From a phage: a DNA stretch of 64,000 bases. The stretch lies in NCBI GenBank assembly GCA_018093385.1, contig GCA_018093385.1_4808.1. One strand, written 5' to 3'. This document shows, piece after piece, positions 1 through 55,221 of this stretch (position 1 is the first letter of the stretch; each line of letters opens with the position of its first letter). The notes below the pieces were generated by a model. The model did not search any database, was not told where the DNA came from, and was given only the letters and a program-made list of their open reading frames with translations. The position numbers and the translations under genes were made by a program.

Positions 1-83
1 AAAAAAACAATTAACTCCATTTTGAATTAATTTAAATTAATTTTTTTCTACATCCTCATACTTATACTAAACTTATATTTATA

Positions 84-140
84 CGTATCATCCGTAAGAT
101 ATAAGTAAAAACAAAGACTTGCGGCAATACGGATGATACG
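84..140. repeat. 13-bp perfect inverted repeat CGTATCATCCGTA (84-96) / TACGGATGATACG (128-140) with 31-bp spacer, preceded by an AT-rich tract (1-83); copy A of an iteron-like element
   Basis: Read directly; same arms and spacing recur at 16034-16089. Confidence 0.8.
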
Positions 141-315
141 TCACGATACGCTTCAACCAGCCAGCAGCGGCTAAGTCATTGATTTGCATAACAAGCGGCA
201 AAAGGGATGGATTTCTTTTATACGTATCAAACAGTACACCACGCACCACGGTCCGCAATTCTATTTGCACTATGATTTGTGTATGTTTATAGCCATAATG
301 AACATCAATCTGCAC

Positions 316-5660: not shown

Positions 5661-7994
5661 TTATTTCGCTGATTTCAGCGCGGCTATCTCTGCCTCTAGT
5701 GATTCAACCTTTTTCATCAACTCCTGCACCACGTGCATCGTGTCAAGAAGCATTGGAGTTGTGTCTAGTTGTTTTTGTTCAACCTCTACGCCTTCGCTCG
5801 GATAGAATTTCACCGTTTTTACATACAACGGGTCAATAATCTCTGCTTGTTGAGCGATGACACCCCTTCTTACCCTTTCCTTTTCATCATTGTTGTAAAT
5901 AAATGTCACATATTCCAACGATGAAAGGTTGCTCCATGCTTTTTCAACCGTTCCTGGCTGTATGTCATGCTTCAAATTCTCATCAGAGATGGCATTCTTT
6001 TGAAGAGTATAAAAGCTATCTGATCCAAGAATTGATACAGAGAAAAACACATCATGAGAGTTAGGCTGTATGTTCATCCTTGTCTGGTACTGCGCATTAT
6101 CATCTCCAACGACGAGCCAAGTGCCCTGCGCAAAACTTCCGTTATTGTTGTGGATCAAACCGTGGTGAAGCGTTGTGGCATAACCTGTATCAACCTGTTG
6201 ACCGCCGCTAAAAAGACTGTTGAAAGCATAGTTTTGACCCATTGACTGTCTCACCGTTGCATAGGTGCCGATTCTTGTTCCAGTCTCACTCCAAGACATT
6301 AAGCTTCCATATCTCGCGGCGAATCTGTCGCTGCTAAGAGTTCCTGCATCATCAAATGCAAGGTCTTTAGTCACCCCTTTTGTTTTATTGTACACAGACA
6401 GTATTGCATAATAAAATCCATCCATGTATGCATCGCATCGCAATCCGGCATCAGCTTCAACAACAGTACCAATTTTGTATTGTGCCCTTACTTGCCCTGA
6501 AGACCCCTTAACCCCAGAGCCTGGTCGAACAGAATCCGCATTGATAACTGACCATTGCGTATTCGCGGCAACAAAGCCACCAGATGCACGAATCACCCAA
6601 ACACCGACAAAGTTGCGCGGCACGATTTCAGCCGCTGATCTTCCGTATACAGGGCTTGATCGAGAAGCGTCAAAGTTTGTTTGTATGAATCTTGAACCAG
6701 AACCTGCTGCTGCTGGAGAGTCCCCAGAAGTGATCGACTGAAAAGCGCCATTAGTCGCCACCTGACTTGGCGCAGAAGCCAACGTGACCATTGTGCGCGG
6801 CGCGGAGTAAGTTATATTTGGTGCACCTGACTCAGAAACGACTCCATTTGATGATGGATTGCCTCCATCACCTCGACCGAACAGGGCCTGAATAGAACCC
6901 GTCTGCACGCCGTTTCGGTCCGGCACACGAAATGTTGTCGTTCCGTTACCTAAAGAGTATTTACCGCGTTTCGCTGGGTCCGCTAACCAATCTGCATCTG
7001 CAATAGGTGAAAGCATTTGCGCATACGCCCAAAGTTCAGGCCAGTCAGCGCGGTTTAACAACTGCCCATCAGCAACGACTTCATACGGTTGAATATAAGC
7101 ACGGCTGTCGCGTAAGTGGAAGTCACCGACGCCATAGTTCATAACGCCGTTCATACTTGGTCCAACGGTGCCTGTGTTTACTAAGTTCTCAACCCAACGC
7201 TTGGTCGCGGCATCATGATCGTTTACTGGGTCACCAGCAAGCGGTGTTGCACCTTGTGGACGAATATTCAACCATGCTTGCGCATTGTCGGCTGACCCTG
7301 TGCCGCCCATAGAAGTCGGAACGATGTTTTGATCAGCGACTGTGCCAAATCCAAAAGCGGACTTCATACCCTGAATGGTAGTTTGGCCTGTGCCGCCGTT
7401 GGCGACTGGGATTATGCTTGACTCGGAATAAATCATGACCCAAGGAGACCACGTGCTATTTTGAGCGTTGAATCTTCTTTGGTAAGTATTGTTAATGGAA
7501 TATGATGTGTATTTTTGAATGCAACTTTCGGTCGATACTCCTGTTTGCAACACCTCTAAGACTCCTGCTTGTTCAACAGGATAGTTCAATCCAAAAGAGG
7601 CGGCGCCATCAGAGTTCTGATAATATTGCCCAAACCAGCTGCCGGTAAGAGCATTAAGATTCATGCCGGAAGGAACAGTGCCAAAATTTCGCAAGGTATT
7701 GGTCAAAGTCGCAGCAGTTGTTCGAATGGAAAGCATGTCACCAGCCGCCCATGCACGCGCTGCAGTTCCTTCCTGCGCACGCTGCACGGTTAGCACGTTT
7801 CCAACTACGGCTGTTACTGTGACGATTTCAAATTGGAGGCCTGTTGCAGCGTCGACGATTGTCGCCACTACACGCTCGTTCGCGGCCAAGGTCGGAAAGC
7901 CCGACCCTGAGCGGATTGTGATTGTGGTGTCTGAAGTCGTCGTTGGCTGGGCAAGCGCGACCTCAAAGTTGTTTTTGAATATTAGCCTTGGCAT
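5661..7994 (-). CDS. Tail fibre/tailspike protein with C-terminal intramolecular chaperone (peptidase S74-like) domain
   Basis: C-terminus LKHDIQP...GVIAQQAEIIDP...coiled-coil tail matches the self-cleaving chaperone module; Gly/Ser/Thr-rich body. Confidence 0.7.
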   Translation of the reverse strand: MPRLIFKNNFEVALAQPTTTSDTTITIRSGSGFPTLAANERVVATIVDAATGLQFEIVTVTAVVGNVLTVQRAQEGTAARAWAAGDMLSIRTTAATLTNTLRNFGTVPSGMNLNALTGSWFGQYYQNSDGAASFGLNYPVEQAGVLEVLQTGVSTESCIQKYTSYSINNTYQRRFNAQNSTWSPWVMIYSESSIIPVANGGTGQTTIQGMKSAFGFGTVADQNIVPTSMGGTGSADNAQAWLNIRPQGATPLAGDPVNDHDAATKRWVENLVNTGTVGPSMNGVMNYGVGDFHLRDSRAYIQPYEVVADGQLLNRADWPELWAYAQMLSPIADADWLADPAKRGKYSLGNGTTTFRVPDRNGVQTGSIQALFGRGDGGNPSSNGVVSESGAPNITYSAPRTMVTLASAPSQVATNGAFQSITSGDSPAAAGSGSRFIQTNFDASRSSPVYGRSAAEIVPRNFVGVWVIRASGGFVAANTQWSVINADSVRPGSGVKGSSGQVRAQYKIGTVVEADAGLRCDAYMDGFYYAILSVYNKTKGVTKDLAFDDAGTLSSDRFAARYGSLMSWSETGTRIGTYATVRQSMGQNYAFNSLFSGGQQVDTGYATTLHHGLIHNNNGSFAQGTWLVVGDDNAQYQTRMNIQPNSHDVFFSVSILGSDSFYTLQKNAISDENLKHDIQPGTVEKAWSNLSSLEYVTFIYNNDEKERVRRGVIAQQAEIIDPLYVKTVKFYPSEGVEVEQKQLDTTPMLLDTMHVVQELMKKVESLEAEIAALKSAK

Positions 7995-11685: not shown

Positions 11686-14061
11686 ATGAAAATTCTTGGC
11701 ATAAAACTCTGGGAGAAGACGCAACCAGAAGCCGAACCAGCGGAGATGCCGCCAGGCGACCCATTGGCACCGTTTGAACGCCTTGAAAGGCGCGGCAGCG
11801 GTCAACGCTGGGAAAAGACTGAAAGCAATCGACCGACCTTTAAAACGGTTGATGACTTCCCTTTATATGAGCCTGATATCAACGGGGACGGCGTTGCAAT
11901 CATCAAAGGTCGCTCAGTAGATTCAGCAACCGTATCCAAAAAAGTTATGGATAATGCCTTAAAGAACATCAGTTCAGAAGGGCAGGTGAATCCATACACA
12001 GTGCCTATTCAGTTGCAAAACTGGTACTTGTCGCAGTCATTCATCGGCTATCAAGCTTGCGCCATCATCGCGCAGCACTGGCTGGTGAACAAGGCTTGTT
12101 CCATGGTAGGTCGCGATGCGGTCCGTAAAGGCTGGGAAGTCAAATCCAGTTCTGAGTCGGAATTGTCAGTACAGGCCAGCGAACGCCTAAAGCAAATTGA
12201 TAAAGAATTTAATATCAAAGAGCACTTAGTTGAAGCCGAACGATTCAAGAATATTTTTGGCATCCGCGTCATCATATTTGATGTGCGCAGTGATGACCCA
12301 GAATATTATAGTAAACCTTTTAACATCGATGGTGTGACAAAAGGGTCTTATAAGGGAATCATTCAGGTTGACCCTTATTGGATGATGCCATTCTTGACGT
12401 CTGAAAACACTGCAGACCCTGCGTCACAGCATTTCTATGATCCAGAATACTGGGTTATCAGCGGACAGCGTTATCATCGCAGCCACCTAATCATCTTGCG
12501 CAACGATGAGCCAGCTGATATTCTCAAGCCGACTTATATCTACGGCGGCATTCCTCTGACTCAGCAGATTTATGAACGTATCTATGCCGCTGAACGTACC
12601 GCTAACGAAGCGCCATTGCTGGCGATGTCTAAGCGTACAACCACGCTGCGGACCGACGTTGACAAGGCGATTGCCAATGAGCGGTCGTTTGCCGAACGTC
12701 TGATGATGTGGATTAAGTACCGCGACAACTATGCGGTAAAAGTGCTTGGTCAGAAAGAAGAGATGGACCAGTTTGACATCAACTTGTCAGACTTCGACAG
12801 CATCATCATGAACCAGTACCAGCTGGTGGCTGCAATCGCAAAAGTGCCGTCGACGAAGCTATTAGGGACGTCACCTAAAGGCTTTAACGCCACTGGTGAG
12901 TTCGAGATGGTCAGCTATCACGAAGAATTGGAAACTTGTCAGCAGCACGATTTGACGAAGATTCTGGACCGTCACTATAAAATCCTTTTGAAATCTGAAG
13001 GTGTTGAAGTCGACGTTAAAGTGGCATGGGAGCCAGTTGGTTCACTTACTGCTACTCAGCTTGCAGAGATTAACGACAAACGAGCGAATACTGGTAAGAC
13101 TCTCATTGATGCTGGCGTCATCTCCCCTGATGAAGAGCGCGACCGCATCAAGGACGACAAAAACAGCGGCTACAACCGTTTGCCAGAAGATACAGCAGAA
13201 GAAACCCCAGGGATGTCTCCAGAGAATATGGCATTGCTTGGCAAGTCTGCTGGTGAAGTTCTGCAAGGTAAAGCCGATATTGAACAGGCCAAAGCTGATG
13301 TCGTCAAGATGGGCGGCCAGTTCTATAGTGAGACTGGTATCATGCCGGAAGGTGCCGCGCGCGGTGAGTTGGCAGAAAACCCTGACAGGGCGCCAGTTGA
13401 GATCAACATGGATGATACCGATGACGAATCAAGCCATCAGGTTGATGTCCTAACGCAACTGAAAGAAGGTCTGGAGGGTATTGCTGACTATTACCTTAAA
13501 GAAGGTCAGGATGTGGATTTTGACCCTCAAAAAGACGCAAGGTCTGTGCAGCCGTCTACCCTTCCAAGCGTAAAAGGCAATGTAGTCAACTTGCGCCACA
13601 ATGTAGGGAAGATGGATGCCTCATCGCTGCCTAAGATGAAGTTGCACGGGATGATTCTTGGTATTGAGAATCCTCGCAACAGCATTCGCAGGGGCAACAG
13701 CCTTGATGGTGAATGGGCAGTTAAGATGCCGCACCATTACGGATTTATCAAAGGCACCAAGGGCGCTGATGGTGATGAAGTCGACTGCTTTGTTGGACCA
13801 AATATGAAGTCGCCTAAAGTATTCATCATTAACCAAAATGATAATTATTCTGGCGAATTTGATGAACACAAGTGTATGCTTGGATTTGATTCAGCAGAAG
13901 AAGCGAAAGAAGCTTATCAAGCATCATTTGGTAACGGTTGGAATGGATTTGACTCAATCCACGAATTGGATGTAAACTCATTCAAGGAGTGGTTGAAGGG
14001 TGATTGCTCTCAAGCATATGGAGCACTCAATAATCCTACTAATTCACCGAAGCAAGGTTGA
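11686..14061 (+). CDS. Portal protein with C-terminal inorganic-pyrophosphatase-like segment
   Basis: 791 aa between terL and Mu-F-like gene; C-terminus has HYGFIKGT...DGDEVDC...AEEAKEAYQASF. Confidence 0.65.
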   Translation: MKILGIKLWEKTQPEAEPAEMPPGDPLAPFERLERRGSGQRWEKTESNRPTFKTVDDFPLYEPDINGDGVAIIKGRSVDSATVSKKVMDNALKNISSEGQVNPYTVPIQLQNWYLSQSFIGYQACAIIAQHWLVNKACSMVGRDAVRKGWEVKSSSESELSVQASERLKQIDKEFNIKEHLVEAERFKNIFGIRVIIFDVRSDDPEYYSKPFNIDGVTKGSYKGIIQVDPYWMMPFLTSENTADPASQHFYDPEYWVISGQRYHRSHLIILRNDEPADILKPTYIYGGIPLTQQIYERIYAAERTANEAPLLAMSKRTTTLRTDVDKAIANERSFAERLMMWIKYRDNYAVKVLGQKEEMDQFDINLSDFDSIIMNQYQLVAAIAKVPSTKLLGTSPKGFNATGEFEMVSYHEELETCQQHDLTKILDRHYKILLKSEGVEVDVKVAWEPVGSLTATQLAEINDKRANTGKTLIDAGVISPDEERDRIKDDKNSGYNRLPEDTAEETPGMSPENMALLGKSAGEVLQGKADIEQAKADVVKMGGQFYSETGIMPEGAARGELAENPDRAPVEINMDDTDDESSHQVDVLTQLKEGLEGIADYYLKEGQDVDFDPQKDARSVQPSTLPSVKGNVVNLRHNVGKMDASSLPKMKLHGMILGIENPRNSIRRGNSLDGEWAVKMPHHYGFIKGTKGADGDEVDCFVGPNMKSPKVFIINQNDNYSGEFDEHKCMLGFDSAEEAKEAYQASFGNGWNGFDSIHELDVNSFKEWLKGDCSQAYGALNNPTNSPKQG

Positions 14062-14062
14062 T

Positions 14063-14914
14063 ATGGCTTTTAAAGCTTCGAAAAAACGTGAACGTCGCTC
14101 GCCCGATAGAATCGGGCGCGGCAGTCCGATAATCCCATCCAACGCTATTGCGATGGCCTATCGTCGTGAGATGAAAGGTCTTTGCTATGCGATGATTGAC
14201 GACTATCAAGCAGGAATTGCTGAGTGGCTTGAAAAGAAGCAGGTTAAAAAGTTCTTTGCGCAAGACTCTGCTGATTCAACTTTTCAGACCTTGATGAAGC
14301 GACTGCAACTGAAATGGGCAAAAGCTTTCGCCCGTGTCGGGTCAAAGATTGCCGCAGATTTCATCAAGTCAGTTGAAAAGGGTGCCACTTCTGCTACATT
14401 TGCAAGTCTTAAATCTGCAGGAATAGAAGCGCCAAAAGCCACATATAATAAATTCGTTGAGAACACTCTTAAAACAAGCGAGACGTTCAACACGACTTTA
14501 GTGACTAAGGTTGGCGAAGATATTCACAACAGGGTGTACGAAGCGGTGATGCTTTCGCTTACTTCGCCAGACCCAGCGCAACAAGGCACGTCCGGCATTC
14601 AGGCGGCATTAAGGAATGTAAAACACTTCTCTGCAAAACGCGTAGACCTTATTGCAAAAGACCAAACAAGCAAACTTTATTGCGTATTAAGTGATGAAAG
14701 GATGCGACAGAATGGCGTTGAGGAATTTGAGTGGGCGCATTCAGGAGCAGGAAAAGAGCCGCGAATATCGCATGAGCACGTCGACGGAATGAGATTTAAA
14801 CTTGATGACAAGCGCCTATGGGAAGTTGGCGGCGAATTGAAGTTCAAAAAGGGTGACATCGGTCCTCCTGGATGGGCGATACACTGCAAGTGCAGAAAAA
14901 TACCAATTATCTGA
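14063..14914 (+). CDS. Head morphogenesis protein (Mu gpF / SPP1 gp7-like)
   Basis: Position after portal; Cys/His-containing C-terminal region. Confidence 0.5.
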   Translation: MAFKASKKRERRSPDRIGRGSPIIPSNAIAMAYRREMKGLCYAMIDDYQAGIAEWLEKKQVKKFFAQDSADSTFQTLMKRLQLKWAKAFARVGSKIAADFIKSVEKGATSATFASLKSAGIEAPKATYNKFVENTLKTSETFNTTLVTKVGEDIHNRVYEAVMLSLTSPDPAQQGTSGIQAALRNVKHFSAKRVDLIAKDQTSKLYCVLSDERMRQNGVEEFEWAHSGAGKEPRISHEHVDGMRFKLDDKRLWEVGGELKFKKGDIGPPGWAIHCKCRKIPII

Positions 14915-14921
14915 GGTCATT

Positions 14922-15842
14922 ATGACGATACCAATCAACACATTCCCTCTATCTGGACAAACTCCAGTCTTGCCTGCGGTGTATGCTAATGGCTTGGCAA
15001 TTGTCTCAGAATTCACTTCTGATAAAAACTTGATTGTTCCACTGAGCCCGCCGCTTGCATCAGGGTATAACTCAGTAGGCCAATTCTTTATGATTGGCAA
15101 TGATGGCGATTCGACCAGCAAGCCTAATCTGACATTGTCTGTACCTAAGATGGACATCACAGACGTTCAAACTGGCTTGACTGCATCAACAATCACCATT
15201 GCTTTTGGAGAAGCGGTGATTATAGGAATGGAGTCTGGAGGGTCCAAGAATGCTGTCGCCGTTAAGGTAGTCAAATCCAGCGACAACCAATACACGTTAC
15301 CAGCTGCGACGGCTTCCGTTCTCGGCGGCGTCAAAATAGGAAGCGGAATAAGCGTCGCAGGTGACGGTACAATTAGCGTCACTCAATACTCATTGCCGAT
15401 TGCGTCAGCATCTACTTTAGGCGGCGTAAAGGTCGGTACAACTCTATCAATTGATGGTTCCGGTGTGCTTAACGCAGCGGAAAGCACCGTCCAGAATGCC
15501 ACGAACAGTGTTAGCAATCCTCCAACCACTTTGGTTAATCTGGCAACCTTAAACCTTCCTGCAGGAAAGTGGCTTGTGACGGCAAGTCAGTTGACTGTCG
15601 CGACAGCAGGAATTCAAGCGAACACCGGAATTACAGCCAAATTGTCAACAAGCGATTCAGATATTACGGATGATGCATTTACGATGTCAGCTGGCATTCG
15701 GGCTGCAGGTCGTTTCGGCGGCAATATTCCAACAAAGATAATTACTCTTGCCGCGCCTGGCGATGTGTATCTAAACTATCAATGCACAGATGCGTTGACA
15801 TCTACCGTTTACGGACAGATCACCGCAATCAAGCTGAACTAA
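14922..15842 (+). CDS. Structural protein with internal tandem Gly-rich repeat
   Basis: GAGGT SD; repeated LGGVK(I/V)G...(D)G(T/S)(I/G)...segments. Confidence 0.5.
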   Translation: MTIPINTFPLSGQTPVLPAVYANGLAIVSEFTSDKNLIVPLSPPLASGYNSVGQFFMIGNDGDSTSKPNLTLSVPKMDITDVQTGLTASTITIAFGEAVIIGMESGGSKNAVAVKVVKSSDNQYTLPAATASVLGGVKIGSGISVAGDGTISVTQYSLPIASASTLGGVKVGTTLSIDGSGVLNAAESTVQNATNSVSNPPTTLVNLATLNLPAGKWLVTASQLTVATAGIQANTGITAKLSTSDSDITDDAFTMSAGIRAAGRFGGNIPTKIITLAAPGDVYLNYQCTDALTSTVYGQITAIKLN

Positions 15843-15852
15843 AGAGGAAGTT

Positions 15853-15990
15853 ATGCAAAAGATTATTCAGTCACGTTATGTTAAAGTGCGAAATATTAAT
15901 TGCAACTCTTTGCTTTCTTGGAAATGGGCTGTTTACGACTCGATGTTAATTGGCGTTTTAGTTGCAGGAGTGCTATTTAATATTCACTGA
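15853..15990 (+). CDS. Small membrane peptide (45 aa, one TM)
   Basis: Strong AAGAGGA SD 6 bp before ATG; below ORF-track length cutoff. Confidence 0.4.
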   Translation: MQKIIQSRYVKVRNINCNSLLSWKWAVYDSMLIGVLVAGVLFNIH

Positions 15991-16020
15991 ATTCATCGGC
16001 AAAGGATTGCCGCGAGTTTT

Positions 16021-16300
16021 ATACGTATAATGACGTATCATCCGTATCAAGTAAGTTGTTGTTTTCAAAAGAATCTTACGGATGATACGGATGATACGCA
16101 TTGCCGCCGTACTATATAGGAATTCAAATAAATTAATTTAAAATTATATATCTAATTTAATTTTATTTTTTTATAAACTCTTATATATGAAAAGTATCCG
16201 TATCATCCGTATCATCCGTAGCACACCAGTGATAGCGCGGCTTATACACCGATACGGATAAAAATACGCCTCATTTTATCCGTATCATCCGTATCACACT
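16021..16300. repeat. Iteron-like element copy B: inverted repeat CGTATCATCCGTA (16034-16046) / TACGGATGATACG (16077-16089), AT-rich core (16100-16190), direct ATCCGTATC repeats (16195-16221, 16278-16295)
   Basis: Read directly; identical arms and spacing to 84-140. Confidence 0.8.
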
Positions 16301-16352
16301 AATAAAGGCGCGGCTATATCGGTCGTTATACATATTCAAACCATAATTATTG

Positions 16353-16382
16353 TTTGCCTAAGTTTTTTTCATTAGATATAAT
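16353..16382 (+). promoter_or_regulatory. Promoter TTTGCC-N18-TATAAT upstream of scaffold/capsid genes
   Basis: Hexamers followed by GAGGGTGG SD. Confidence 0.45.
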
Positions 16383-16411
16383 ACACAATACTTATTTGAG
16401 GGTGGATGCGA

Positions 16412-17824
16412 ATGCAAACGGCACGCGAAATTGACAAAAATGGATTCTTGACGATTATGGGTTGTCCAATTTCGTCATTTGGCATTTTTGATTATTCTGC
16501 TGGTCAAGTTGGTCTTGATGGTGATCCGAATCGCATCGTAAAAGTCTATCGCCCTGAGTCAGCGGTGAAAGACCCCGAAGCGATAGATTCATTCAAAAAT
16601 ATCCCTTTCATCGACAATCACGAAATGCTTTCTGGATTTGAAGGTGATGAGGATAACACAGCACCCGAAGAGTATGGAGTTGATGGCGTTCTGACTGGCA
16701 ATGTTTATTATGACAAGCCATGGATGCGCGGCGACCTTAAAGTGTTTAGCCGTCGTCTGAAGAAGGCCATTGATTCTGGAAAGGTTGACTTGTCTTTGGG
16801 CTATGACTGTGAATTCATCATACAGTCTGGAGAGTTTGACGGGCAGCCGTATGAAGTGGTGCAGACAACTCTTCGCGGCAACCACATTGCTCTCGTGGAC
16901 GTTGGTCGAGTACCAGGTGCACGGGTGCTGGATGGTCGTTGCTTTGACCATCTTTGTTTGACGACTGTAACACCATCCAACGAGGATTTAGACATGCCAA
17001 AACCGTTAAAAGGTAAAGCGCGTGATAATGCTGTTGAACAGCTGAAATCACTGATCCCTGCGCTCGAACAATTTCTGAATGAAGAGAGTACTGAAGCTGC
17101 TCATCAGGACGAAGTTGAAGTGAAAGCAGAAGAGAAGGACTCAACCGAAAATCGTGAAGAAGTAATGGTTGATCCAGAAGTCAAGGCAGAAGCAGAAGAA
17201 ACCCCAGAAGGTGAAGAGAAGTTTGAAGTTGAAACTGAATCTCACGCCAGCGGCGAACTTCCGCAATTGATCAGCCAAATCGAAGCACTTATTGCAAAAC
17301 TGAAAGGTGGCGCGGTAGGTGATGAAGAAGAAGTTGAAGCCGAAGTCAAAGACGAAGAAGTTGAAGTCAAGGCTGAAGATGTATCACCTTGCGACAAAGC
17401 TGAAGATGTGGTTAGCGGCCTGCAAAACAGCAACGTAAAGGGGGCTTCGGTCGAAAAAGATGACAAACCGACAAAAGCGGCGAAAGCGTCGCCAGGTCCA
17501 GCAAAAGGGGAACACTCAATGGCATCTGATTCAGCAGTTGCTGCTTTCTACGCTGATTCTGCTCGTAAGAATAGCCTCTACCAGCGCCTGTCTAAAGTTG
17601 TTGGTGCCTTTGATCATGCAACTATGGACTCCAAGTCCGTAGCGAAATATGGCGCTAAAAAGTTAGGCTTGAAGTGCGTTGATGGTGCTGAGTTTGACGT
17701 GGTGGATAATTATCTGCGCGGCGTTGAGCACGGTCAGAAACAGCGTGTAGTCGCAAAACAAAAGGCCGCTGCGGATTCTGCAGCAACTGACGAAGCATTT
17801 GAAGCTTGGTTGAAAGGGGAATAA
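16412..17824 (+). CDS. Scaffolding/prohead maturation protein (acidic repeat-rich)
   Basis: Glu-rich EVEAEVKDEEVEVKAE repeats; immediately upstream of capsid gene; ORF-track start 16406. Confidence 0.55.
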   Translation: MQTAREIDKNGFLTIMGCPISSFGIFDYSAGQVGLDGDPNRIVKVYRPESAVKDPEAIDSFKNIPFIDNHEMLSGFEGDEDNTAPEEYGVDGVLTGNVYYDKPWMRGDLKVFSRRLKKAIDSGKVDLSLGYDCEFIIQSGEFDGQPYEVVQTTLRGNHIALVDVGRVPGARVLDGRCFDHLCLTTVTPSNEDLDMPKPLKGKARDNAVEQLKSLIPALEQFLNEESTEAAHQDEVEVKAEEKDSTENREEVMVDPEVKAEAEETPEGEEKFEVETESHASGELPQLISQIEALIAKLKGGAVGDEEEVEAEVKDEEVEVKAEDVSPCDKAEDVVSGLQNSNVKGASVEKDDKPTKAAKASPGPAKGEHSMASDSAVAAFYADSARKNSLYQRLSKVVGAFDHATMDSKSVAKYGAKKLGLKCVDGAEFDVVDNYLRGVEHGQKQRVVAKQKAAADSAATDEAFEAWLKGE

Positions 17825-17826
17825 AC

Positions 17827-18444
17827 ATGACTTTCCAAACTAGTGTAGGCCGTCAATATACAACTGGCTTTCCTGGCGACATCGTTCGCGACGGCCCACA
17901 GCGTGGGAAGCCAGGCCGAATCGTTAGCGCCAACGACGGTGCAAACGTAAACGCCATCAGCCGTGTGTTTGGTTTTAAAGCTGACGTATCATTAATGGGT
18001 ACTGGCCAAACCAAAACCTTGGGCGCGCAGGACTTTGAAGTTGAACTGGGCGGCACCAATTACTATGGCATCCTTGGCAACAGCAAGCGTTACGCTCTGT
18101 ATGGCAACTCTACTGGTCCTTTGGGCGCCAGCATGGTTCTGCCTCAATATAGCGAAGGCGAGTTCTACGATATGTGCACGGGCCTCGTAGTTGAAGTATT
18201 CAACCCAAGCACCAGTCCGCAGACGCTGAACTACGGCGACCTGCTCGCTTATGTACCTAAAGGCATTTCCAGCGGTAACAACCCGAACAACTTGCCTATC
18301 GGTGCAATTATCGCCTACACTGGCTCACTGCCAACTGGCATGGTTGCCATTCCAGGCGGTATCGTGATTGACCCGACTGCTATTGCCCTTTCCGGCCCAA
18401 GCGTCCAGTCTTCCACTTATACCATTGTACAATTGACTCGTTAA
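17827..18444 (+). CDS. Head structural protein (Gly-rich; decoration or capsid-associated)
   Basis: Internal ATG with AAGGGG SD. Confidence 0.45.
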   Translation: MTFQTSVGRQYTTGFPGDIVRDGPQRGKPGRIVSANDGANVNAISRVFGFKADVSLMGTGQTKTLGAQDFEVELGGTNYYGILGNSKRYALYGNSTGPLGASMVLPQYSEGEFYDMCTGLVVEVFNPSTSPQTLNYGDLLAYVPKGISSGNNPNNLPIGAIIAYTGSLPTGMVAIPGGIVIDPTAIALSGPSVQSSTYTIVQLTR

Positions 18445-18458
18445 TAGGCAGGTGAATA

Positions 18459-19598
18459 ATGACTCGCATTAGCCAAACACACTCTCGCCTCCCAGCGAGC
18501 AAGGTGCGCCCTTTTGATATGCAATCCGTCACTGACGCGGCTGTTTCCCAGCTTGCTCGTATCGGTATTGTGTTTGATTCCGCGATTGTGCGTGATCAAA
18601 TTGAGCACTTAAACCGTGCAGGCGCTTTTCGCGTAGGTGACGCCGCGTTTACTGCGCCGCAGACTACTCCGTCAATCCCGACCCCGTTGCAATTCCTGCA
18701 GCAATGGCTGCCTGGCTTCGTCAAAATCATGACCGCTGCTCGTAAAATCGACGAGCTGGTTGGTATTGATACCGTTGGTCAGTGGGAAGATGCGGAAATC
18801 GTTCAGGGTATCGTTGAACCAGCTGGCACCGCAGTTGAATATGGTGATTTCACCTCTATTCCTCTGGCAAGCTGGAACGTAAACTTTGAACGTCGTTCTA
18901 TCGTTCGTGGCGAAATGGGCATGGCAGTTGGTATGCTGGAAGAAGGCCGCGCGTCTGCTATGCGTCTGAACTCCGCAGAAACCAAGCGCCAGCAGGCTGC
19001 TGTATCTCTGGAAATCATGCGTAACGCAATCGGCTTCTATGGTTGGTACAACGGGAACAACCGCACATTCGGCTTCCTGAATGATCCAAACCTGCCAGCA
19101 GCGATGACTTCCCACACCACTTCCGGCTGGGCTACTGCGACTTTCCAACAGGTAACTGCAGACATCCGTTTGATGGTTCGTCAAATTCGTGTGAACTCTC
19201 AGGACCAGATTGATCCAGAGAAAGTTGACATGACTCTGGCGCTGCCGACTAACTCTATCGATTGGCTGTCCAACACCACTGACTTCGGTATTTCTGTACG
19301 TGACTGGATCACCCAGACTTATCCGAAGATGAAGATCAAATCTGCACCGGAACTCAACGGCGCACTTGGCAGTGACCCGACTTTCTTGAACGTGGCATAC
19401 CTGTACGCTGATCACATCGATTCCTCAATTGATGGTTCAAGCGATGATGGTTCCGTATTCAGTCAGCTGGTTCAAACCAAGTTCATGACTCTGGGCGTTG
19501 AAAAGCGTGCTAAGAGCTACGTTGAAGACTACGCAAACGCAACAGCAGGCGTTCTGCTCAAGCGTCCGTTCGCAGTCGTCCGTATGACTGGTATTTAA
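18459..19598 (+). CDS. Major capsid protein (putative)
   Basis: 379 aa, AGGTGA SD, follows scaffold, followed by hairpin. Confidence 0.6.
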
Positions 19599-37316: not shown

Positions 37317-37961
37317 ATGATTAATGCAAACGTAATATCTAAAGGGACCGGATGCAGCATGGATGTTGCTGAAAAATGGGTCGACCCCTTCAAGCAGGCT
37401 TGTGAGCACTACGGAATCAAAAGCAAGAATGCCATCGCGGCGCTGCTTGCAAACGTAGGAGTGGAAACAGGCAGTCTGAAGACCTTTGTGGAAAACCTGA
37501 ATTATTCCGCTCAAGGTCTTGCTAATACGTGGCCTAGCCGTTACAGCGCCAGCGGTCGTTTCGGTGGCGCACCAAACTCCTTGGCATTGTCGATTGCCCG
37601 TAAACCAATGGAAATCGCCAATAATACATATGCAAACCGAATGGGAAATGGTTCGGTAGCATCTGGCGACGGTTGGAAGTACCGTGGCCGTGGTGCCATT
37701 CAGCTGACTGGAAAGGACAACTATGCAGAGTATTCAAAGCAATCAGGGTATGACGCATTGAATAACCCTGACATTTTGACTGAGCCGAAATACATTGCTG
37801 ACAGCGCGGCATGGTTCTTCAAGAACAGCGGTTGCATTCCACTTGCCGATGCGGGCGCATTTGATTCGACCGTGAAGCGGATTAACGGGGCCGCGCCAAA
37901 TACGGCTAACCATGGGGATTTGCGACGGAAGCGTTACAAGGGAGCACTAGCAGTTATGTAA
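37317..37961 (+). CDS. Endolysin, glycoside hydrolase family 19-like
   Basis: GWKYRGRGAIQLTGKDNY resembles the GH19 core; AAGGTGA SD. Confidence 0.65.
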   Translation: MINANVISKGTGCSMDVAEKWVDPFKQACEHYGIKSKNAIAALLANVGVETGSLKTFVENLNYSAQGLANTWPSRYSASGRFGGAPNSLALSIARKPMEIANNTYANRMGNGSVASGDGWKYRGRGAIQLTGKDNYAEYSKQSGYDALNNPDILTEPKYIADSAAWFFKNSGCIPLADAGAFDSTVKRINGAAPNTANHGDLRRKRYKGALAVM

Positions 37962-37962
37962 G

Positions 37963-37993
37963 AAAAAGGCCCATATGGGCCTTTGTTTATTTT
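37963..37993. terminator. Bidirectional rho-independent terminator (AAAGGCCC-ATAT-GGGCCTTT, T-run after)
   Basis: Perfect palindrome between convergent genes. Confidence 0.75.
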
Positions 37994-38217
37994 ACGGCTT
38001 CAACCTGGACGGGCGGCGCGGAACTTGTATCAATGTCTGGCAAGTCGAAGTAATACCCCGCCATGCCAATCACGCCAACAATCGCGGCCCGTGCCACCTT
38101 GTTGCTAATTGACTCCCCAATAAGCTTTACCAACAGGGACAAGATTTGAGACGTCAAAGCCTTTTTCAGCCTTTTGTTTTCTTCCAAATCTTTCTGCATA
38201 ACTACCACCCATGTCAA
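37987..38217 (-). CDS. Small hypothetical protein with short hydrophobic segment
   Basis: 76 aa. Confidence 0.4.
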   Translation of the reverse strand: MTWVVVMQKDLEENKRLKKALTSQILSLLVKLIGESISNKVARAAIVGVIGMAGYYFDLPDIDTSSAPPVQVEAVK

Positions 38218-38756
38218 CGCACATCCTGTGTCTTAACATTACCTGAAGCATCTCTTAAGGGCAGTGGATAGTAGGCCATTTGGTAGTCTGATACGCCTTC
38301 AACATGATAAAACACGATTACGTCTTTGCTGTTGATGAGCATGTTAACGACATCTGATTTATCTTCTGGAGTGAGTATGAGTGCGCCGCCTGTCCTGCTG
38401 TCTACTGCAACAGGGTATGTCTTGTCGACAAGGCCGCTGTCCAATGTATTATACCTGACAACGATTTCAGGGGCATCAACTTTTGCAATTGACATTCCGA
38501 ACACAAACGACACGACTTGGCGACCGCGATCATTCATTACGCACATCTTTTCCTTGTCAAACCTTTCCTTTATCACATCGTATTTGTTCCAGCAAAATTC
38601 GAACGATTGACCGTTGTTAAAATATCTCGTTAACACTTTGGCATTACTATTTGGCGGCGTAAACATACTTTCAGCCGCTGCACTTTTGGTGAAGAACAAA
38701 ACTGTCAGCATAGCCATGATGATGATCAAAACGATCTTTAAATTTTTCGATTTCAT
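38214..38756 (-). CDS. Secreted protein (signal peptide)
   Basis: Lys-rich start then hydrophobic core ending AAA; AAAGGTG SD. Confidence 0.5.
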   Translation of the reverse strand: MKSKNLKIVLIIIMAMLTVLFFTKSAAAESMFTPPNSNAKVLTRYFNNGQSFEFCWNKYDVIKERFDKEKMCVMNDRGRQVVSFVFGMSIAKVDAPEIVVRYNTLDSGLVDKTYPVAVDSRTGGALILTPEDKSDVVNMLINSKDVIVFYHVEGVSDYQMAYYPLPLRDASGNVKTQDVR

Positions 38757-39910: not shown

Positions 39911-40500
39911 TCAAACTCCTTATTCATCACTTGTTCCAGCGCATAGGCGTAAGCCTGATCAGTCGATTTGATAAACGTGCCGTTGTACATGACGCCTTTG
40001 CGGTCTTTGATGTCTTCGTAGGCAGCTTGCGCACAGTCGGATAAGCGAAGGCCATAATCATGAGCTACGCCGGAAAGGTAATCGACTGCGGCCATGATGG
40101 TGACGTCAATATCCATGGTTTGATTCTTGGCAATAGCATCACCAAGTCGTCCAAGGGTCTTTGCCAGGCGAAGGATAAATGAATGAGGGTGAGCGCCTTT
40201 ATCAGCGCAACCGCCGCCATTAATGTTTTCGATTTCAGCACCGTTTTGCGCTGCCAGGATGGTCAACACGACAAGGCAATCGCCAATGTCGTCCTTAATT
40301 GCGGCTTGCAAGTCACAGATGGCCTGCTCTGTATATCCAATTTCGGGGTCGAAGAACACAAGGTCATGGAGTTGATCAACGTGGTCGGTCAACTCCCCAA
40401 ACTCGCTGATAAGCTTCGGGTATTGGTCCTTAAGGTCGCAACCTTGGATGATGTTACGGTCAGAAGCCCACTGGCGAATGTTTGCATAAATCTGGTTCAT
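39907..40500 (-). CDS. MazG-like nucleoside triphosphate pyrophosphohydrolase (putative)
   Basis: EFGELTDHV...DIGDCLVVLTILA and RLAKTLGRLGD segments resemble MazG helices. Confidence 0.45.
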   Translation of the reverse strand: MNQIYANIRQWASDRNIIQGCDLKDQYPKLISEFGELTDHVDQLHDLVFFDPEIGYTEQAICDLQAAIKDDIGDCLVVLTILAAQNGAEIENINGGGCADKGAHPHSFILRLAKTLGRLGDAIAKNQTMDIDVTIMAAVDYLSGVAHDYGLRLSDCAQAAYEDIKDRKGVMYNGTFIKSTDQAYAYALEQVMNKEFE

Positions 40501-41015
40501 TTATTTTCCTTTGATGCATTGAATTGATCGATTTTTATTTTAGCCTGATTATAAGTATCAATCAAGCTATTAACTTTCTCTTTTAATCGGCTTGTTTCTG
40601 CGGCGAACTGAACAAGAAATCTGACATCTCCTTCTGATAGTCCACAGTTTCCTTCTGGGATAGAGAGGCGTCCAGTGGTCGCAGAGTCGGGCATACTCCT
40701 GAGTAACTCACGGGAGCAGCTGAGTTGCGCGCGCAGCTTGATATTCCCAGACTTGTAACGAGCAATAGTGTCATCAGCAACCAGTTGCGCTTCCTGGCGA
40801 CCTTTCTCATATGCCGATGCCGATTCAACCTGTAAAGATGCAATTTGCTCTTCGAGTGCATTTATCTTGTCCTTACGCTCATTCAGCGATGTCAGATATT
40901 GGTTATCCTTGGCCAGTGATGCGTTGGTTTGCTGCAGGTCTTCAACGTATGATCCAGCGGCAAACGCGCCAACAAGGGCCAGAATCTTCAGGAGCGGTAC
41001 AATTCTTTCTATCAT
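40497..41015 (-). CDS. Rz: i-spanin (Rz-like)
   Basis: N-terminal TM, coiled-coil body, C-terminal resemblance to lambda Rz. Confidence 0.6.
   Translation of the reverse strand: MIERIVPLLKILALVGAFAAGSYVEDLQQTNASLAKDNQYLTSLNERKDKINALEEQIASLQVESASAYEKGRQEAQLVADDTIARYKSGNIKLRAQLSCSRELLRSMPDSATTGRLSIPEGNCGLSEGDVRFLVQFAAETSRLKEKVNSLIDTYNQAKIKIDQFNASKENK
40583..40861 (-). CDS. Rz1: o-spanin (Rz1-like lipoprotein) embedded in +1 frame inside Rz; start uncertain (40861, 40810 or 40774)
   Basis: Basic n-region, hydrophobic LLMTLLLVTSLGI, lipobox-like ISSC, Pro-containing mature part with second Cys. Confidence 0.5.
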   Translation of the reverse strand: MHSKSKLHLYRLNRHRHMRKVARKRNWLLMTLLLVTSLGISSCARNSAAPVSYSGVCPTLRPLDASLSQKETVDYQKEMSDFLFSSPQKQAD

Positions 41016-54036: not shown

Positions 54037-55221
54037 TTAACGCGCTTTCAAATCACGGTACACGGTCAGATTCTTCTTAGCACGGGTGATAGCGGTGTAC
54101 ATCATCTTGGAGTACGGAACGCCGCGCAAGATTTCTTCCAGCACGCACACATTGTCCCACTCGCTGCCTTGCGATTTGTGCACCGTGATGACATAGCCAT
54201 AATCCATCCCGCCAACAGCGCGTTGGGCCTCTTTGCGCACTTCCTGATCAGTAGAGAAGGAAAGAGGATTAATCTTAACCTTTATATCTTTGCCATCGGT
54301 AAGCGAGCGCAAATTGACATACATGATTTCATTGGACTCGTCTTCGTCCCTTTCAAAGTCCGGCACTGGCTCATAGCTAATAACAATCCCTTGCTCGCCA
54401 TTACAGAATCCTGGCCCGTGCTGGTTGAAGGTGCAAATAACTTTCTCGCCGATTCCTGGCATTGGCGTTATACGTCCGCTCACTTGCCGTAATAATGAAT
54501 TCCATTTATCTTTGGTGCTATTATAGGAGCAAATAATTTGATCATCTTCGCCCATGAATTTCTTCAATGCAGTAACGCGCGGCGATTCTGCCAATACTTT
54601 GACGTCATCGTATTCACGCGGAGGAAGGCGGTTGCCTTGGCGCACGAAGAAGGAGGCGCGGATTATATTGGACTCTTTCCCTTGCCGCATGATTTCTGTT
54701 AACAGTACGTCAACGGCTTCTTCGGTAAAGTAGGCGGCGGCTTTTACCGGAGGGACTTGTCCAATGTCGCCTAATGCCAGCACAGGGATGCGGTGATCAA
54801 GAAGGCGCTCTGTGTCCCACTCGCCAACCATCGACGCTTCATCGAGTACAACAAGGTGCGGCCTTTCGTCCAGTTTTGACTTTCTCGAAAAGATTGGCTC
54901 ATTGTCGTCATTTACGCCGCGCACGTTATAGATGAACTGGTGAAGGGTCTTAGCGCCACGACAGCCTTTTTGCTTTAATCGGCTTGCAGCCTTTCCGGTC
55001 GGCGCAATATAGATAGCGCCGTACTCACCGACACAGCGGCGCACAATCTCGCGAGCAATAGAGGTTTTACCAGTCCCTGCATAGCCAGCGATGAAAAACA
55101 CGCGCTTCGTCGTTTTACCGTCCTGCAATCGCTTGTACCATGCAACGGCTTTCTCGATGGCGTCGATTTGTTGCGCGTTAAACTGAATCACTGGCTCATC
55201 ATTAAATTCTGGAATGTTCAT
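54037..55221 (-). CDS. SF1B helicase (Dda/RecD-like)
   Basis: Walker A GYAGTGKT, Walker B VVLDEASM, GDIGQVPP, TVHKSQGSEWD. Confidence 0.8.
   Translation of the reverse strand: MNIPEFNDEPVIQFNAQQIDAIEKAVAWYKRLQDGKTTKRVFFIAGYAGTGKTSIAREIVRRCVGEYGAIYIAPTGKAASRLKQKGCRGAKTLHQFIYNVRGVNDDNEPIFSRKSKLDERPHLVVLDEASMVGEWDTERLLDHRIPVLALGDIGQVPPVKAAAYFTEEAVDVLLTEIMRQGKESNIIRASFFVRQGNRLPPREYDDVKVLAESPRVTALKKFMGEDDQIICSYNSTKDKWNSLLRQVSGRITPMPGIGEKVICTFNQHGPGFCNGEQGIVISYEPVPDFERDEDESNEIMYVNLRSLTDGKDIKVKINPLSFSTDQEVRKEAQRAVGGMDYGYVITVHKSQGSEWDNVCVLEEILRGVPYSKMMYTAITRAKKNLTVYRDLKAR

Follow-up and report, generated by a model that had tools for sequence, protein, structure and literature searches.

The short open reading frame (ORF) at positions 15853-15990 (+) of the window, by which we mean the whole 64,000-nucleotide stretch of phage DNA analyzed here, is almost certainly a real protein-coding gene, and a codon-level comparison of close relatives shows that it has evolved under purifying selection. 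By its motif, position and profile score, the ORF is shown to represent Wifcevirus in a small and hitherto unnamed family of peptides of 41-50 aa, the range of which, on the same comparative grounds, covers the PB1-like myophages of ~62-73 kb (Wifcevirus, Kylevirus, Myosmarvirus, Pbunavirus, Bcepfunavirus, Carpasinavirus and phage Pluto). What is new here is the recognition of a core family that spans several genera, shares a defined motif and always closes the portal operon. No new gene is added to the record; identical proteins have already been deposited, one of them with a transmembrane note.

The ORF and its genomic context

The window comes from a Wifcevirus-type E. coli myophage. In the region 14800-17900, the best match was Bas98 with 99.1% identity, and 29 phage records, all of them Wifcevirus-type E. 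coli or Shigella myophages, matched at 94-99% identity. A terminal repeat of ~3.7 kb has been described in WFC and WFH (PMC6563267). The left end of the WFC-type record is close to the start of the window, and the 45-codon ORF is located at 15790 in WFC as compared to 15853 in the window. The relevant features are the following.

11686-14061 (+): portal-type "minor head protein"
14000-14914 (+): Mu-F-like head-morphogenesis protein (PF04233)
14922-15842 (+): head-fibre-like protein (PF11133), from the annotated start to the TAA stop at 15840-15842
15842-15848 (+): Shine-Dalgarno-like AAGAGGA, read directly in the sequence
15853-15990 (+): gene for the 45-aa peptide, between the head-fibre-like gene and the non-coding gap; ATG at 15853-15855, 45 sense codons, TGA at 15988-15990 (ORF listing)
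15910-15939 (+): codons 20-29, LLSWKWAVYD, the conserved aromatic/basic family motif ending in Asp29 (alignments)
15940-15978 (+): codons 30-42, SMLIGVLVAGVLF, uncharged hydrophobic C-terminal stretch (AlphaFold2, hydropathy, Phobius note)
15997-16022 (+): terminator-like hairpin CGGCAA-AGGA-TTGCCG, followed by CGAGTTTTAT, a T-rich run (weak match in a consensus scan)
3' of the 45-codon ORF and 5' of the protease gene: non-coding gap of 415 bp
16406-17824 (+): DUF2213/PF09979 head protease/scaffold
3' of the protease/scaffold gene (+): cement protein and major capsid protein, the latter at 18459-19598
37317-37961: endolysin
37987-38217 (minus): 76-aa TM ORF adjoining the Wifcevirus endolysin
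40497-41015: spanins

The ATG at 15853 and the 45-aa reading frame ending at 15990, as given in a preliminary description of this DNA, were confirmed by the sequence and the ORF listing, and the encoded peptide is MQKIIQSRYVKVRNINCNSLLSWKWAVYDSMLIGVLVAGVLFNIH. Its hydrophobic run, MLIGVLVAGVLF, comprises residues 31-42, and only NIH follows after codons 30-42. The putative ribosome-binding site AAGAGGA is also present and of good quality, and overlaps with the TAA stop codon (15840-15842) of the head-fibre-like gene; the spacer to the ATG is 4 nt (AGTT) rather than the 6 bp previously stated, a correction that is immaterial. The terminator-like hairpin begins 6 nt 3' of the TGA, and its stem is kept in the Wifcevirus relatives, the commonest change (15997 C>T) being one that would make a G-U pair. 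Judging from the sequence, this hairpin is likely to mark the end of a transcription unit that consists of the portal, MuF, fibre and small-ORF genes. The first 9-mer repeat, ATCCGTATC, is located at 16040, 50 nt past the stop codon, in agreement with the earlier placement of the ORF just upstream of iteron copy B. The cumulative GC skew of the window tracks the direction of transcription and is uninformative on an origin at 16.1 kb.

Evidence for a protein-coding gene

By a mechanical definition, the window contains 678 ORFs of at least 30 aa, and an ORF of 45 codons therefore proves nothing alone. It is this number, along with the short length of the frame, that speaks for a chance ORF, the conservation of which would only reflect an overlapping DNA signal. 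The codon analysis was based on an alignment of the window with 12 Wifcevirus records (13 sequences). The ORF contains 14 variable columns (10%) and is thus not frozen at the DNA level. As many as 12 of the 14 variable sites are in the third codon position (binomial P = 8e-5 for at least 12 of 14), while the remaining two are first positions of leucine codons (TTR/CTR). The 10 nucleotide haplotypes among these sequences translate into only three peptides, the variants being I5M in EC150 and a substitution of Leu32 in the unverified record ECP_WGS_SA1.

Altogether, 14 synonymous versus two non-synonymous changes were counted in frame, as compared to 0-8 synonymous versus 8-16 non-synonymous changes in the other five frames across 15853-15984, in which stops occur at 3-5 codon positions. 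An overlapping 55-aa ORF (15782-15949, +) and an antisense 42-aa ORF (15973-16101, minus) were rejected on the mostly non-synonymous changes and the stops in these other frames. No codon periodicity is seen in the gap adjoining the ORF, where the three phases contain 14, 10 and 9 variable sites. The Shine-Dalgarno sequence and the start codon are invariant, with no variable column at 15835-15863 in the 13 sequences. A tblastn search recovered the peptide from all 29 Wifcevirus records, with 100% identity in 27 of them. According to the preliminary description, a lack of conservation of the frame in related genomes would speak against the gene, and the opposite is observed here, both in the substitution counts and in its presence in every record.

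A family HMM built without any Wifcevirus sequence matched the window ORF with 32.2 bits (E = 2e-8), and the score was 19.7 bits (E = 1.5e-4) when Kylevirus was also removed. The leave-out HMM ranked the window ORF first among the 678 window ORFs and 5000 shuffles, the best of which scored 9.0 bits. A chance ORF thus seems extremely improbable: synonymous sites vary freely (10% of the columns) while the peptide stays constant, and homologues with 20-40% identity are found at the same place in other genera. The leave-out HMM and the substitution counts effectively refute this reading.

A peptide family in the PB1-like myophages

Relatives of the protease encoded in the window were identified in Kylevirus (57% identity), Myosmarvirus (53-55%), Bcepfunavirus and related Burkholderia phages (49%) and ~296 Pbunavirus (PB1-like) records (44-46%), as well as in Luteibacter phage Pluto and Carpasinavirus XcP1. 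We read the region from the Mu-F gene to the protease gene in MyoSmar, MTx, 14-1, Kyle, PA1, Karil-Mokiny-1, BCSR52, XcP1 and Pluto, and syntenic homologues were also read on two metagenomic contigs. In each of the named lineages, the final gene ahead of the protease gene is a plus-strand ORF encoding 43-50 aa, and the homologues are as follows.

Kyle gp032: MQKFTTAIKPLNEGWVSEEFKTNPLLTWRWAIFDITMVTLIVIGVILKAL
MyoSmar gp080: ...KFFSWKLMVVDVVVIAAALLILH
MTx gp030
14-1 ORF20 (PP141_gp21, YP_002364329.1; phrog_5611): ...GFFSLKFAAIDLAIIGFAILMAFGR
Karil-Mokiny-1 CDS0007
BCSR52 QRE00373
PA1: homologue at the same locus, which accounts for a weak tblastn match
XcP1 and Pluto: homologous ORFs, unannotated

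The members share the motif [FL][FL][ST]W[KR]W..[VI].D, after which 10-16 hydrophobic residues, none of them charged, extend to or near the C-terminus. The consensus is FFSW[KR]W.V.D, and Asp29 is the sole invariant column besides the start Met (alignments A1 and A2). The counterparts in 14-1, MyoSmar, MTx, Kyle, Karil-Mokiny-1 and BCSR52 are alike in length (43-50 aa), position, a Shine-Dalgarno sequence of their own and a hairpin after the stop, and have the motif FFS[WL][KR][WF]..[VI].D and a hydrophobic C-terminus in common, whereas they are 18-39% identical to the Wifcevirus peptide and have N-terminal halves that are unrelated in sequence and charge. The window peptide agrees with the rest of the family in being a 45-aa single predicted helix with the motif, the synteny and a significant profile score.

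The gene has a fixed place in all of these phages, being the last gene of the portal/MuF unit, 5' of the gene for the DUF2213 (Pa193 gp24-type) protease/scaffold. The gene order in the window is portal-MuF-fibre-ORF, and the synteny of portal/MuF, ORF and protease is repeated in nine other lineages. The slot neighbouring the small ORF is variable across hosts, whereas the position of the ORF itself in the head module is invariant, and this fixed position spans phages of Escherichia, Pseudomonas, Burkholderia and Xanthomonas. A 68-aa gene (phrog_2423) that is absent from the window precedes the ORF in Pbunavirus and Myosmarvirus, its stop overlapping with the start of the ORF. A purine-rich, Shine-Dalgarno-like sequence precedes the homologous ORF in all other genera, and a GC-rich hairpin is located 3-14 nt past its stop in seven other lineages, which indicates that the gene closes the portal transcription unit. 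In five genera, the 420-550 bp 3' of the ORF contain an AT-rich core surrounded by ~9-bp repeats that occur in both orientations and are specific to the genus, whereas XcP1 and Pluto keep the ORF with a following gap of only ~110-145 bp.

The 14-1 peptide was found in full length in 297 records (292 Pseudomonas, four Pbunalikevirus and one other). The Pseudomonas and Pbunalikevirus counts are the same as for the protease, and the gene is therefore a core gene also in that group. The phrog_5611 profile scored the 14-1 peptide at 2e-34 and the MyoSmar peptide at 0.0066, whereas an hmmscan of the Wifcevirus peptide gave no match to phrog_5611 at E <= 1. For this reason we place the Wifcevirus peptide in the wider family and not in phrog_5611, and the link between the two is based on our own family profile and on synteny. 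The Wifcevirus peptide also had a weak match to phrog_16923 (E = 0.026).

When 1.84 billion cluster representatives were scanned exhaustively with the profile, there were 14 matches below E = 1e-3, of which 11 were proteins of 34-68 aa; the metagenomic members P0014-P0018 bear the same motif. Three matches were long, repetitive proteins that we discarded as low-complexity artefacts, namely P0012 (1448 aa, 19 stretches), P0013 (625 aa, 11 stretches) and P0019 (251 aa, 3 stretches). With the single peptide as the query, a word-indexed search covering 5.8 billion proteins recovered two near-identical clusters only, and the other genera were reached only with an alignment. One 69-kb metagenomic contig has the order portal(InPase)-MuF-ORF-440 bp gap-PF09979-cement-capsid. 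Another member is located on a Wifcevirus-like metagenomic contig with the same hairpin, repeats and promoter, and the longer reading on this contig, MQKF..., speaks for a true start at the ATG at 15853. Searches of Pfam, NCBIfam and PDB with the peptide and the family gave no usable relative; PDB matches to the ribosomal protein eS24 (E = 0.03 and 0.56) and an NCBIfam match to PsbN (E = 0.08) were treated as chance.

The portal-MuF-DUF2213 protease-capsid module is also found in two phages that are more distantly related, Yersinia P744 and Plectonema Lbo240-yong2. Both lack the small ORF and the gap, and their MuF gene directly abuts, or closely precedes, the protease gene. A head of this type can thus be built without the small ORF, and we therefore consider the gene to be an addition specific to the group of ~62-73 kb phages.

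Predicted structure and membrane anchoring

The preliminary description had proposed one hydrophobic helix, which is borne out by several predictions. AlphaFold2, run on an alignment of 12 sequences, modeled a single helix across residues 3-44, with pLDDT values of 51-54 in the N-terminal half and 82-93 over residues 21-45. The Kyte-Doolittle maximum over 15 residues is 2.3 for the Wifcevirus peptide and 1.6-3.0 across the family, and a Phobius prediction is noted for the identical protein vBEco4M7_39. Taken together, WKWAVYD and codons 30-42 form a helix of ~20 residues, a length sufficient to cross a membrane. The 10-16 residues that follow the Asp are too few for this purpose, and the membrane span must therefore take in WKWAVYD, with its Lys/Arg and Asp. 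A crude, unweighted Hessa-type sum is borderline at +2 to +5 kcal/mol in most members. The product is thus probably a single helix that is anchored in the inner membrane via its C-terminal ~20 residues, as judged from these models.

The net charge of the N-terminal part ranges from +5 to -6 across the family, and for this reason the positive-inside rule leaves the topology unfixed. Only 0-4 residues follow past the hydrophobic stretch in the family members, and hence the natural reading is a tail-anchored peptide with a cytoplasmic N-terminus. The small residues G34, A38 and G39, which are Ala or Gly in other members, suggest a putative face for helix-helix packing. The possibility of a lipoprotein anchored via Cys17 was rejected on finding no signal peptide or lipobox before the Cys.

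Is the peptide part of the virion?

In mass-spectrometry analyses of the virions of vB_Eco4M-7 and ECML-117, the proteins _36, _37, _38, _40, _41 and _42 of the former and gp34-36 and gp38-40 of the latter were detected, which correspond to the neighbouring portal, MuF, fibre-like, protease, cement and capsid proteins (PMC7048862). The product of the small gene (_39 and gp37, respectively) was not detected in the tables for these two phages (PMC7048862); the identity of _39 was checked in the record. The family profile, including the Pbunavirus members, matched no chain in the PDB, even though the E217 and Pa193 virions have been solved. For Pa193, the LC-MS data list gp20 and gp21 near the capsid genes but not gp22 and gp23 (PMC11456595), and the gene order leads us to infer that gp22 is the homologue, the numbering in the paper being different from that in RefSeq. 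A hydrophobic peptide of 5 kDa gives few tryptic peptides, and absence from these data therefore provides weak evidence that the product is not part of the finished virion.

A possible role in head assembly at the membrane

Our working model, which is tentative, is that the peptide is a tail-anchored inner-membrane accessory factor that acts at the start of head assembly. In the part of this model that is fairly likely, the peptide would be made late, together with portal and MuF, would be missing from the finished virion, and would be oriented with the N-terminus in the cytoplasm and with a Trp-Lys/Arg-Trp belt at the membrane interface. The invariant Asp would be located just inside the bilayer, and the face with G34, A38 and G39 would be available for helix-helix packing. 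More speculatively, the peptide may, for example, hold or nucleate a portal/MuF initiation complex at the membrane. We infer a role in head assembly from the constant place of the gene within the head module in phages of very different hosts, next to a slot that varies, and from a precedent in gp40 of phage T4. In T4, the portal initiator gp20 assembles on the inner membrane, aided by the viral chaperone gp40 and in contact with YidC (PMC9958956). By analogy, an accessory function for head morphogenesis at the membrane is possible, if somewhat doubtful. It is unlikely, albeit conceivable, that a tail-anchored factor tethers or nucleates portal/MuF initiation in all PB1-like myophages, with the invariant Asp contacting a partner such as YidC or the portal. 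If this were true, membrane-bound prohead initiation, which is documented mainly for T4 (gp40/gp20/YidC), would extend to a group that includes the therapeutic Pbunaviruses.

The comparison to gp40, a non-virion inner-membrane protein at the start of head assembly (PMC9958956), is proposed as a functional analogy only. The prohead-protease and scaffold system of T4 is related to that of the window phage (PMC9958956). The small T4 proteins gp67 and gp68 are encoded between the genes for the portal and the prohead protease and are absent from mature virions (PMC9958956), and resemble the Wifcevirus peptide in these respects. They are, however, soluble core components cleaved by gp21, whereas the Wifcevirus peptide has a tail like that of a membrane anchor. 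T4 gp40 is larger than the 45-aa peptide, and its gene does not adjoin the portal gene.

Other explanations for the conservation of the gene

The peptide could alternatively be a host-directed membrane effector, a small membrane effector having also been suggested in the preliminary description. It would insert in the inner membrane and modulate a conserved host membrane protein by binding to it, with proteases, insertases, signalling enzymes and defence components as examples, and the place of its gene in the head module would be incidental. PB1-like phages do encode another very small peptide with a predicted TM segment, YIP (14-1 gp11/LBL3 gp88; ~3.6 kDa), which binds the inner-membrane diguanylate cyclase YfiN by TM protein-protein contact (PMC8085984). 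The invariant intramembrane Asp and the small-residue face would fit such TM-TM recognition, and the fact that distant relatives build the same type of head without the peptide also agrees with an effector function. However, the two are not the same peptide; YIP is encoded by a different gene at another locus in the early region (PMC8085984) and is confined to Pbunavirus, whereas the present family is late, located in the head module and found in many genera. Host-takeover genes in these phages are early and have a quick turnover, but every genus has the small gene at its set place in the late head module, and all 297 Pbunavirus-type and all 29 Wifcevirus records contain it; moreover, any target would need to be shared by hosts ranging from Burkholderia to Escherichia. 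We therefore consider an effector function unlikely. Rather less probable is a prohead core peptide like T4 gp67 and gp68, which would be degraded or expelled on maturation and would have its hydrophobic tail buried in a protein bundle instead of a membrane. The relative gene position is that of T4 genes 67 and 68, the degradation of their products by gp21 accounts for their absence from virions (PMC9958956), and the Wifcevirus peptide is likewise absent from the virion data. Furthermore, an unassigned trimeric density of ~16 residues per chain has been described under the hexons of Pa193 (PMC11456595), but the internal density was mainly ascribed to gp24 by the authors (PMC11456595). A tail of 10-16 uncharged Ile, Leu, Val and Ala residues after a Trp-Lys-Trp belt is what one would expect of a membrane anchor and not of a soluble core protein, and there is no match in Pfam to any core-protein family.

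The suggestion in the preliminary description that the peptide is holin-like, considered here along with functions as an antiholin or lysis-timing peptide, finds some basis in the late expression of the gene, the single hydrophobic helix predicted for its product and the lack of an annotated holin in Bas98. Like the holins (lambda S105, S21 pinholin, T4 T and T7 gp17.5), the peptide is a small, late and predicted membrane-inserted phage protein. The C-terminal domain of holins is charged and hydrophilic, two or more TMDs or a large periplasmic domain are usual, and most holins are encoded in a lysis cassette, whereas the Wifcevirus peptide ends 0-4 residues past the hydrophobic stretch, as in the rest of the family, and has none of these characteristics. 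Holin genes can be distant from the endolysin gene, as for T7 17.5 and T4 t, but in this case the distance is ~21 kb to the endolysin gene and ~24 kb to the spanin genes, with the ORF located in the head module in all genera. Other holin candidates are also at hand, in the form of the 76-aa TM ORF beside the endolysin gene in Wifcevirus and a separate multi-TMD protein of 146 aa in the Pbunaviruses, labelled holin by some annotators. A role in lysis is thus poorly supported and in our view quite improbable. Finally, the peptide might work together with the AT-rich repeat element just downstream, for instance as a membrane tether for an origin or regulatory region, and the variable N-terminal half would then match the genus-specific repeats. 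Although the presence of such repeats in five genera and the likewise genus-specific N-terminal halves would agree with this idea, the ORF is kept in XcP1 and Pluto, where the gap is only ~110-145 bp, a segment of ~20 residues is very small for a sequence-specific binder of DNA, and the charge of the N-terminal half is negative in several members. We consider such a function very unlikely.

Significance and annotation status

The gene that we tentatively place in head assembly at the membrane is a small target that is cheap to mutate, and with it one can examine whether the membrane is the site at which the heads of these phages begin to assemble. The group includes the Pbunaviruses, which are widely used in phage therapy, as well as the newly tractable Wifcevirus isolates of the BASEL collection. 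Our findings also flag several genomes in which the gene has been missed or misnamed.

The gene is already catalogued in the public data, TM prediction included. It was previously described as unannotated, which is true only for the ORF track used at that time; most of the 29 public Wifcevirus records list the identical sequence under the name "hypothetical protein." A hypothetical CDS for the peptide is present in Bas98-101, WFC, WFH, ECML-117, Mansfield and others, and the annotated hypothetical proteins YP_009823578.1, XPK41373.1 and QFG06860.1 are 100% identical to it. For the identical protein vBEco4M7_39 of vB_Eco4M-7 (MN176217), the GenBank note reads "transmembrane domain found with Phobius." The records for FEC19 and CWP003 contain the ORF without a CDS feature.

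A repeat-rich gap downstream of the small ORF

The small ORF is followed by a non-coding gap that may be of greater interest than the ORF itself. Approximately nine copies of ATCCGTATC, in both orientations, flank an AT-rich core of 90 nt in which the GC content is only 8-12%, and a sigma-70-like promoter is located downstream of both elements. The gap resembles an origin or an array of binding sites for a DNA-binding protein specific to the phage.

15991-16405, repeat-rich gap after the small ORF
16110-16199, AT-rich core of the gap
16354-16382, sigma-70-like promoter

The arrangement of repeats and core 3' of the homologous ORF recurs in other genera, each of which has its own repeat: AACGGTTAT in PA1, TTACTTTTCG in MyoSmar/MTx, CAAATTACC in 14-1 and TAGTTACT in the Burkholderia phages. 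The counterpart gaps were located in the following homologous loci.

L017, 2030-2510
L004, 2515-2995
L018, 2025-2500
L006, 2478-3038
L019 and L021, 2080-2505

In XcP1 and Pluto, the gap after the homologous ORF is only about 110-145 bp long.

Furthermore, a degenerate second copy of the repeat element was identified at the extreme start of the window (1-240).

1-60, AT-rich run
81-96, ATACGTATCATCCGTA
126-140, AATACGGATGATACG, inverted
220, ATACGTATC

Phages WFC and WFH have a terminal repeat of about 3.7 kb (PMC6563267). Because positions 1-240 are near the left end of a WFC-type genome, the second copy is probably situated inside this terminal repeat.

Variation among the neighboring genes

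The slot between the gene for the Mu-F-like head-morphogenesis protein and the small ORF differs by lineage: Wifcevirus has a fiber gene in this position and Kyle a signal-peptide-like ORF of 46 aa. In Pbunavirus, Myosmarvirus, the Burkholderia phages and one Wifcevirus-like metagenomic contig, a conserved protein of about 50-69 aa (phrog_2423), with the pattern MPL..G.S......N...EI.AGK.PKQA.AIAY, is encoded upstream of the small ORF. Judging from gene order, it is probably the virion-detected "gp21" of Pa193. A tblastn search yielded no credible copy of it in the window.

L006, 2139-2345, phrog_2423-type small protein
L004, 2166-2375, phrog_2423-type small protein
L022, 522-704, phrog_2423-type small protein

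The head-fiber-like gene of the window (14922-15842), which matches PF11133 at 29 bits, varies far more than any other gene of the locus: 23% of its columns are variable, as compared to 4% in the protease gene. The changes are largely synonymous (199 synonymous versus 32 non-synonymous). Its product was abundant in the mass-spectrometry analysis of vB_Eco4M-7, with 73% coverage (PMC7048862). Annotators have variously labeled it tail fiber, tail connector or head fiber; PP596836 has it split into two separate CDSs, and the start annotated for it in SP13 is a shorter one.

This phage group has an unusually long portal-type "minor head protein" of 777-830 aa. In one related contig, an inorganic-pyrophosphatase-like domain (PF18823) is present at the C-terminus of this protein. 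Distant relatives without the small ORF have short portals, 466-521 aa.

11686-14061, portal gene of the window
L023, 720-3059, portal gene of a related contig

Annotation of the small-ORF family

Homologs of the small ORF were also identified in four phages where they had not been annotated.

XcP1 (L005), 2725-2856
Pluto (L020), 2243-2389
FEC19, 54549-54683
CWP003, 7808-7942

The homolog in Xanthomonas phage FoX7 (P0008) is named "putative DNA methyltransferase." This name cannot be right; the protein is a hydrophobic peptide of 43 aa.

Candidate lysis genes

No holin is listed in the annotation of Bas98. An ORF of 76 aa on the opposite strand directly adjoins the endolysin gene; it has a single hydrophobic helix (AAIVGVIGMAGYYF) and is itself adjoined by the gene for a 180-aa protein whose N-terminus is signal-peptide-like. 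Both are candidates for the missing lysis functions.

37317-37961, endolysin gene
37987-38217, minus strand, 76-aa ORF
38214-38756, minus strand, 180-aa protein
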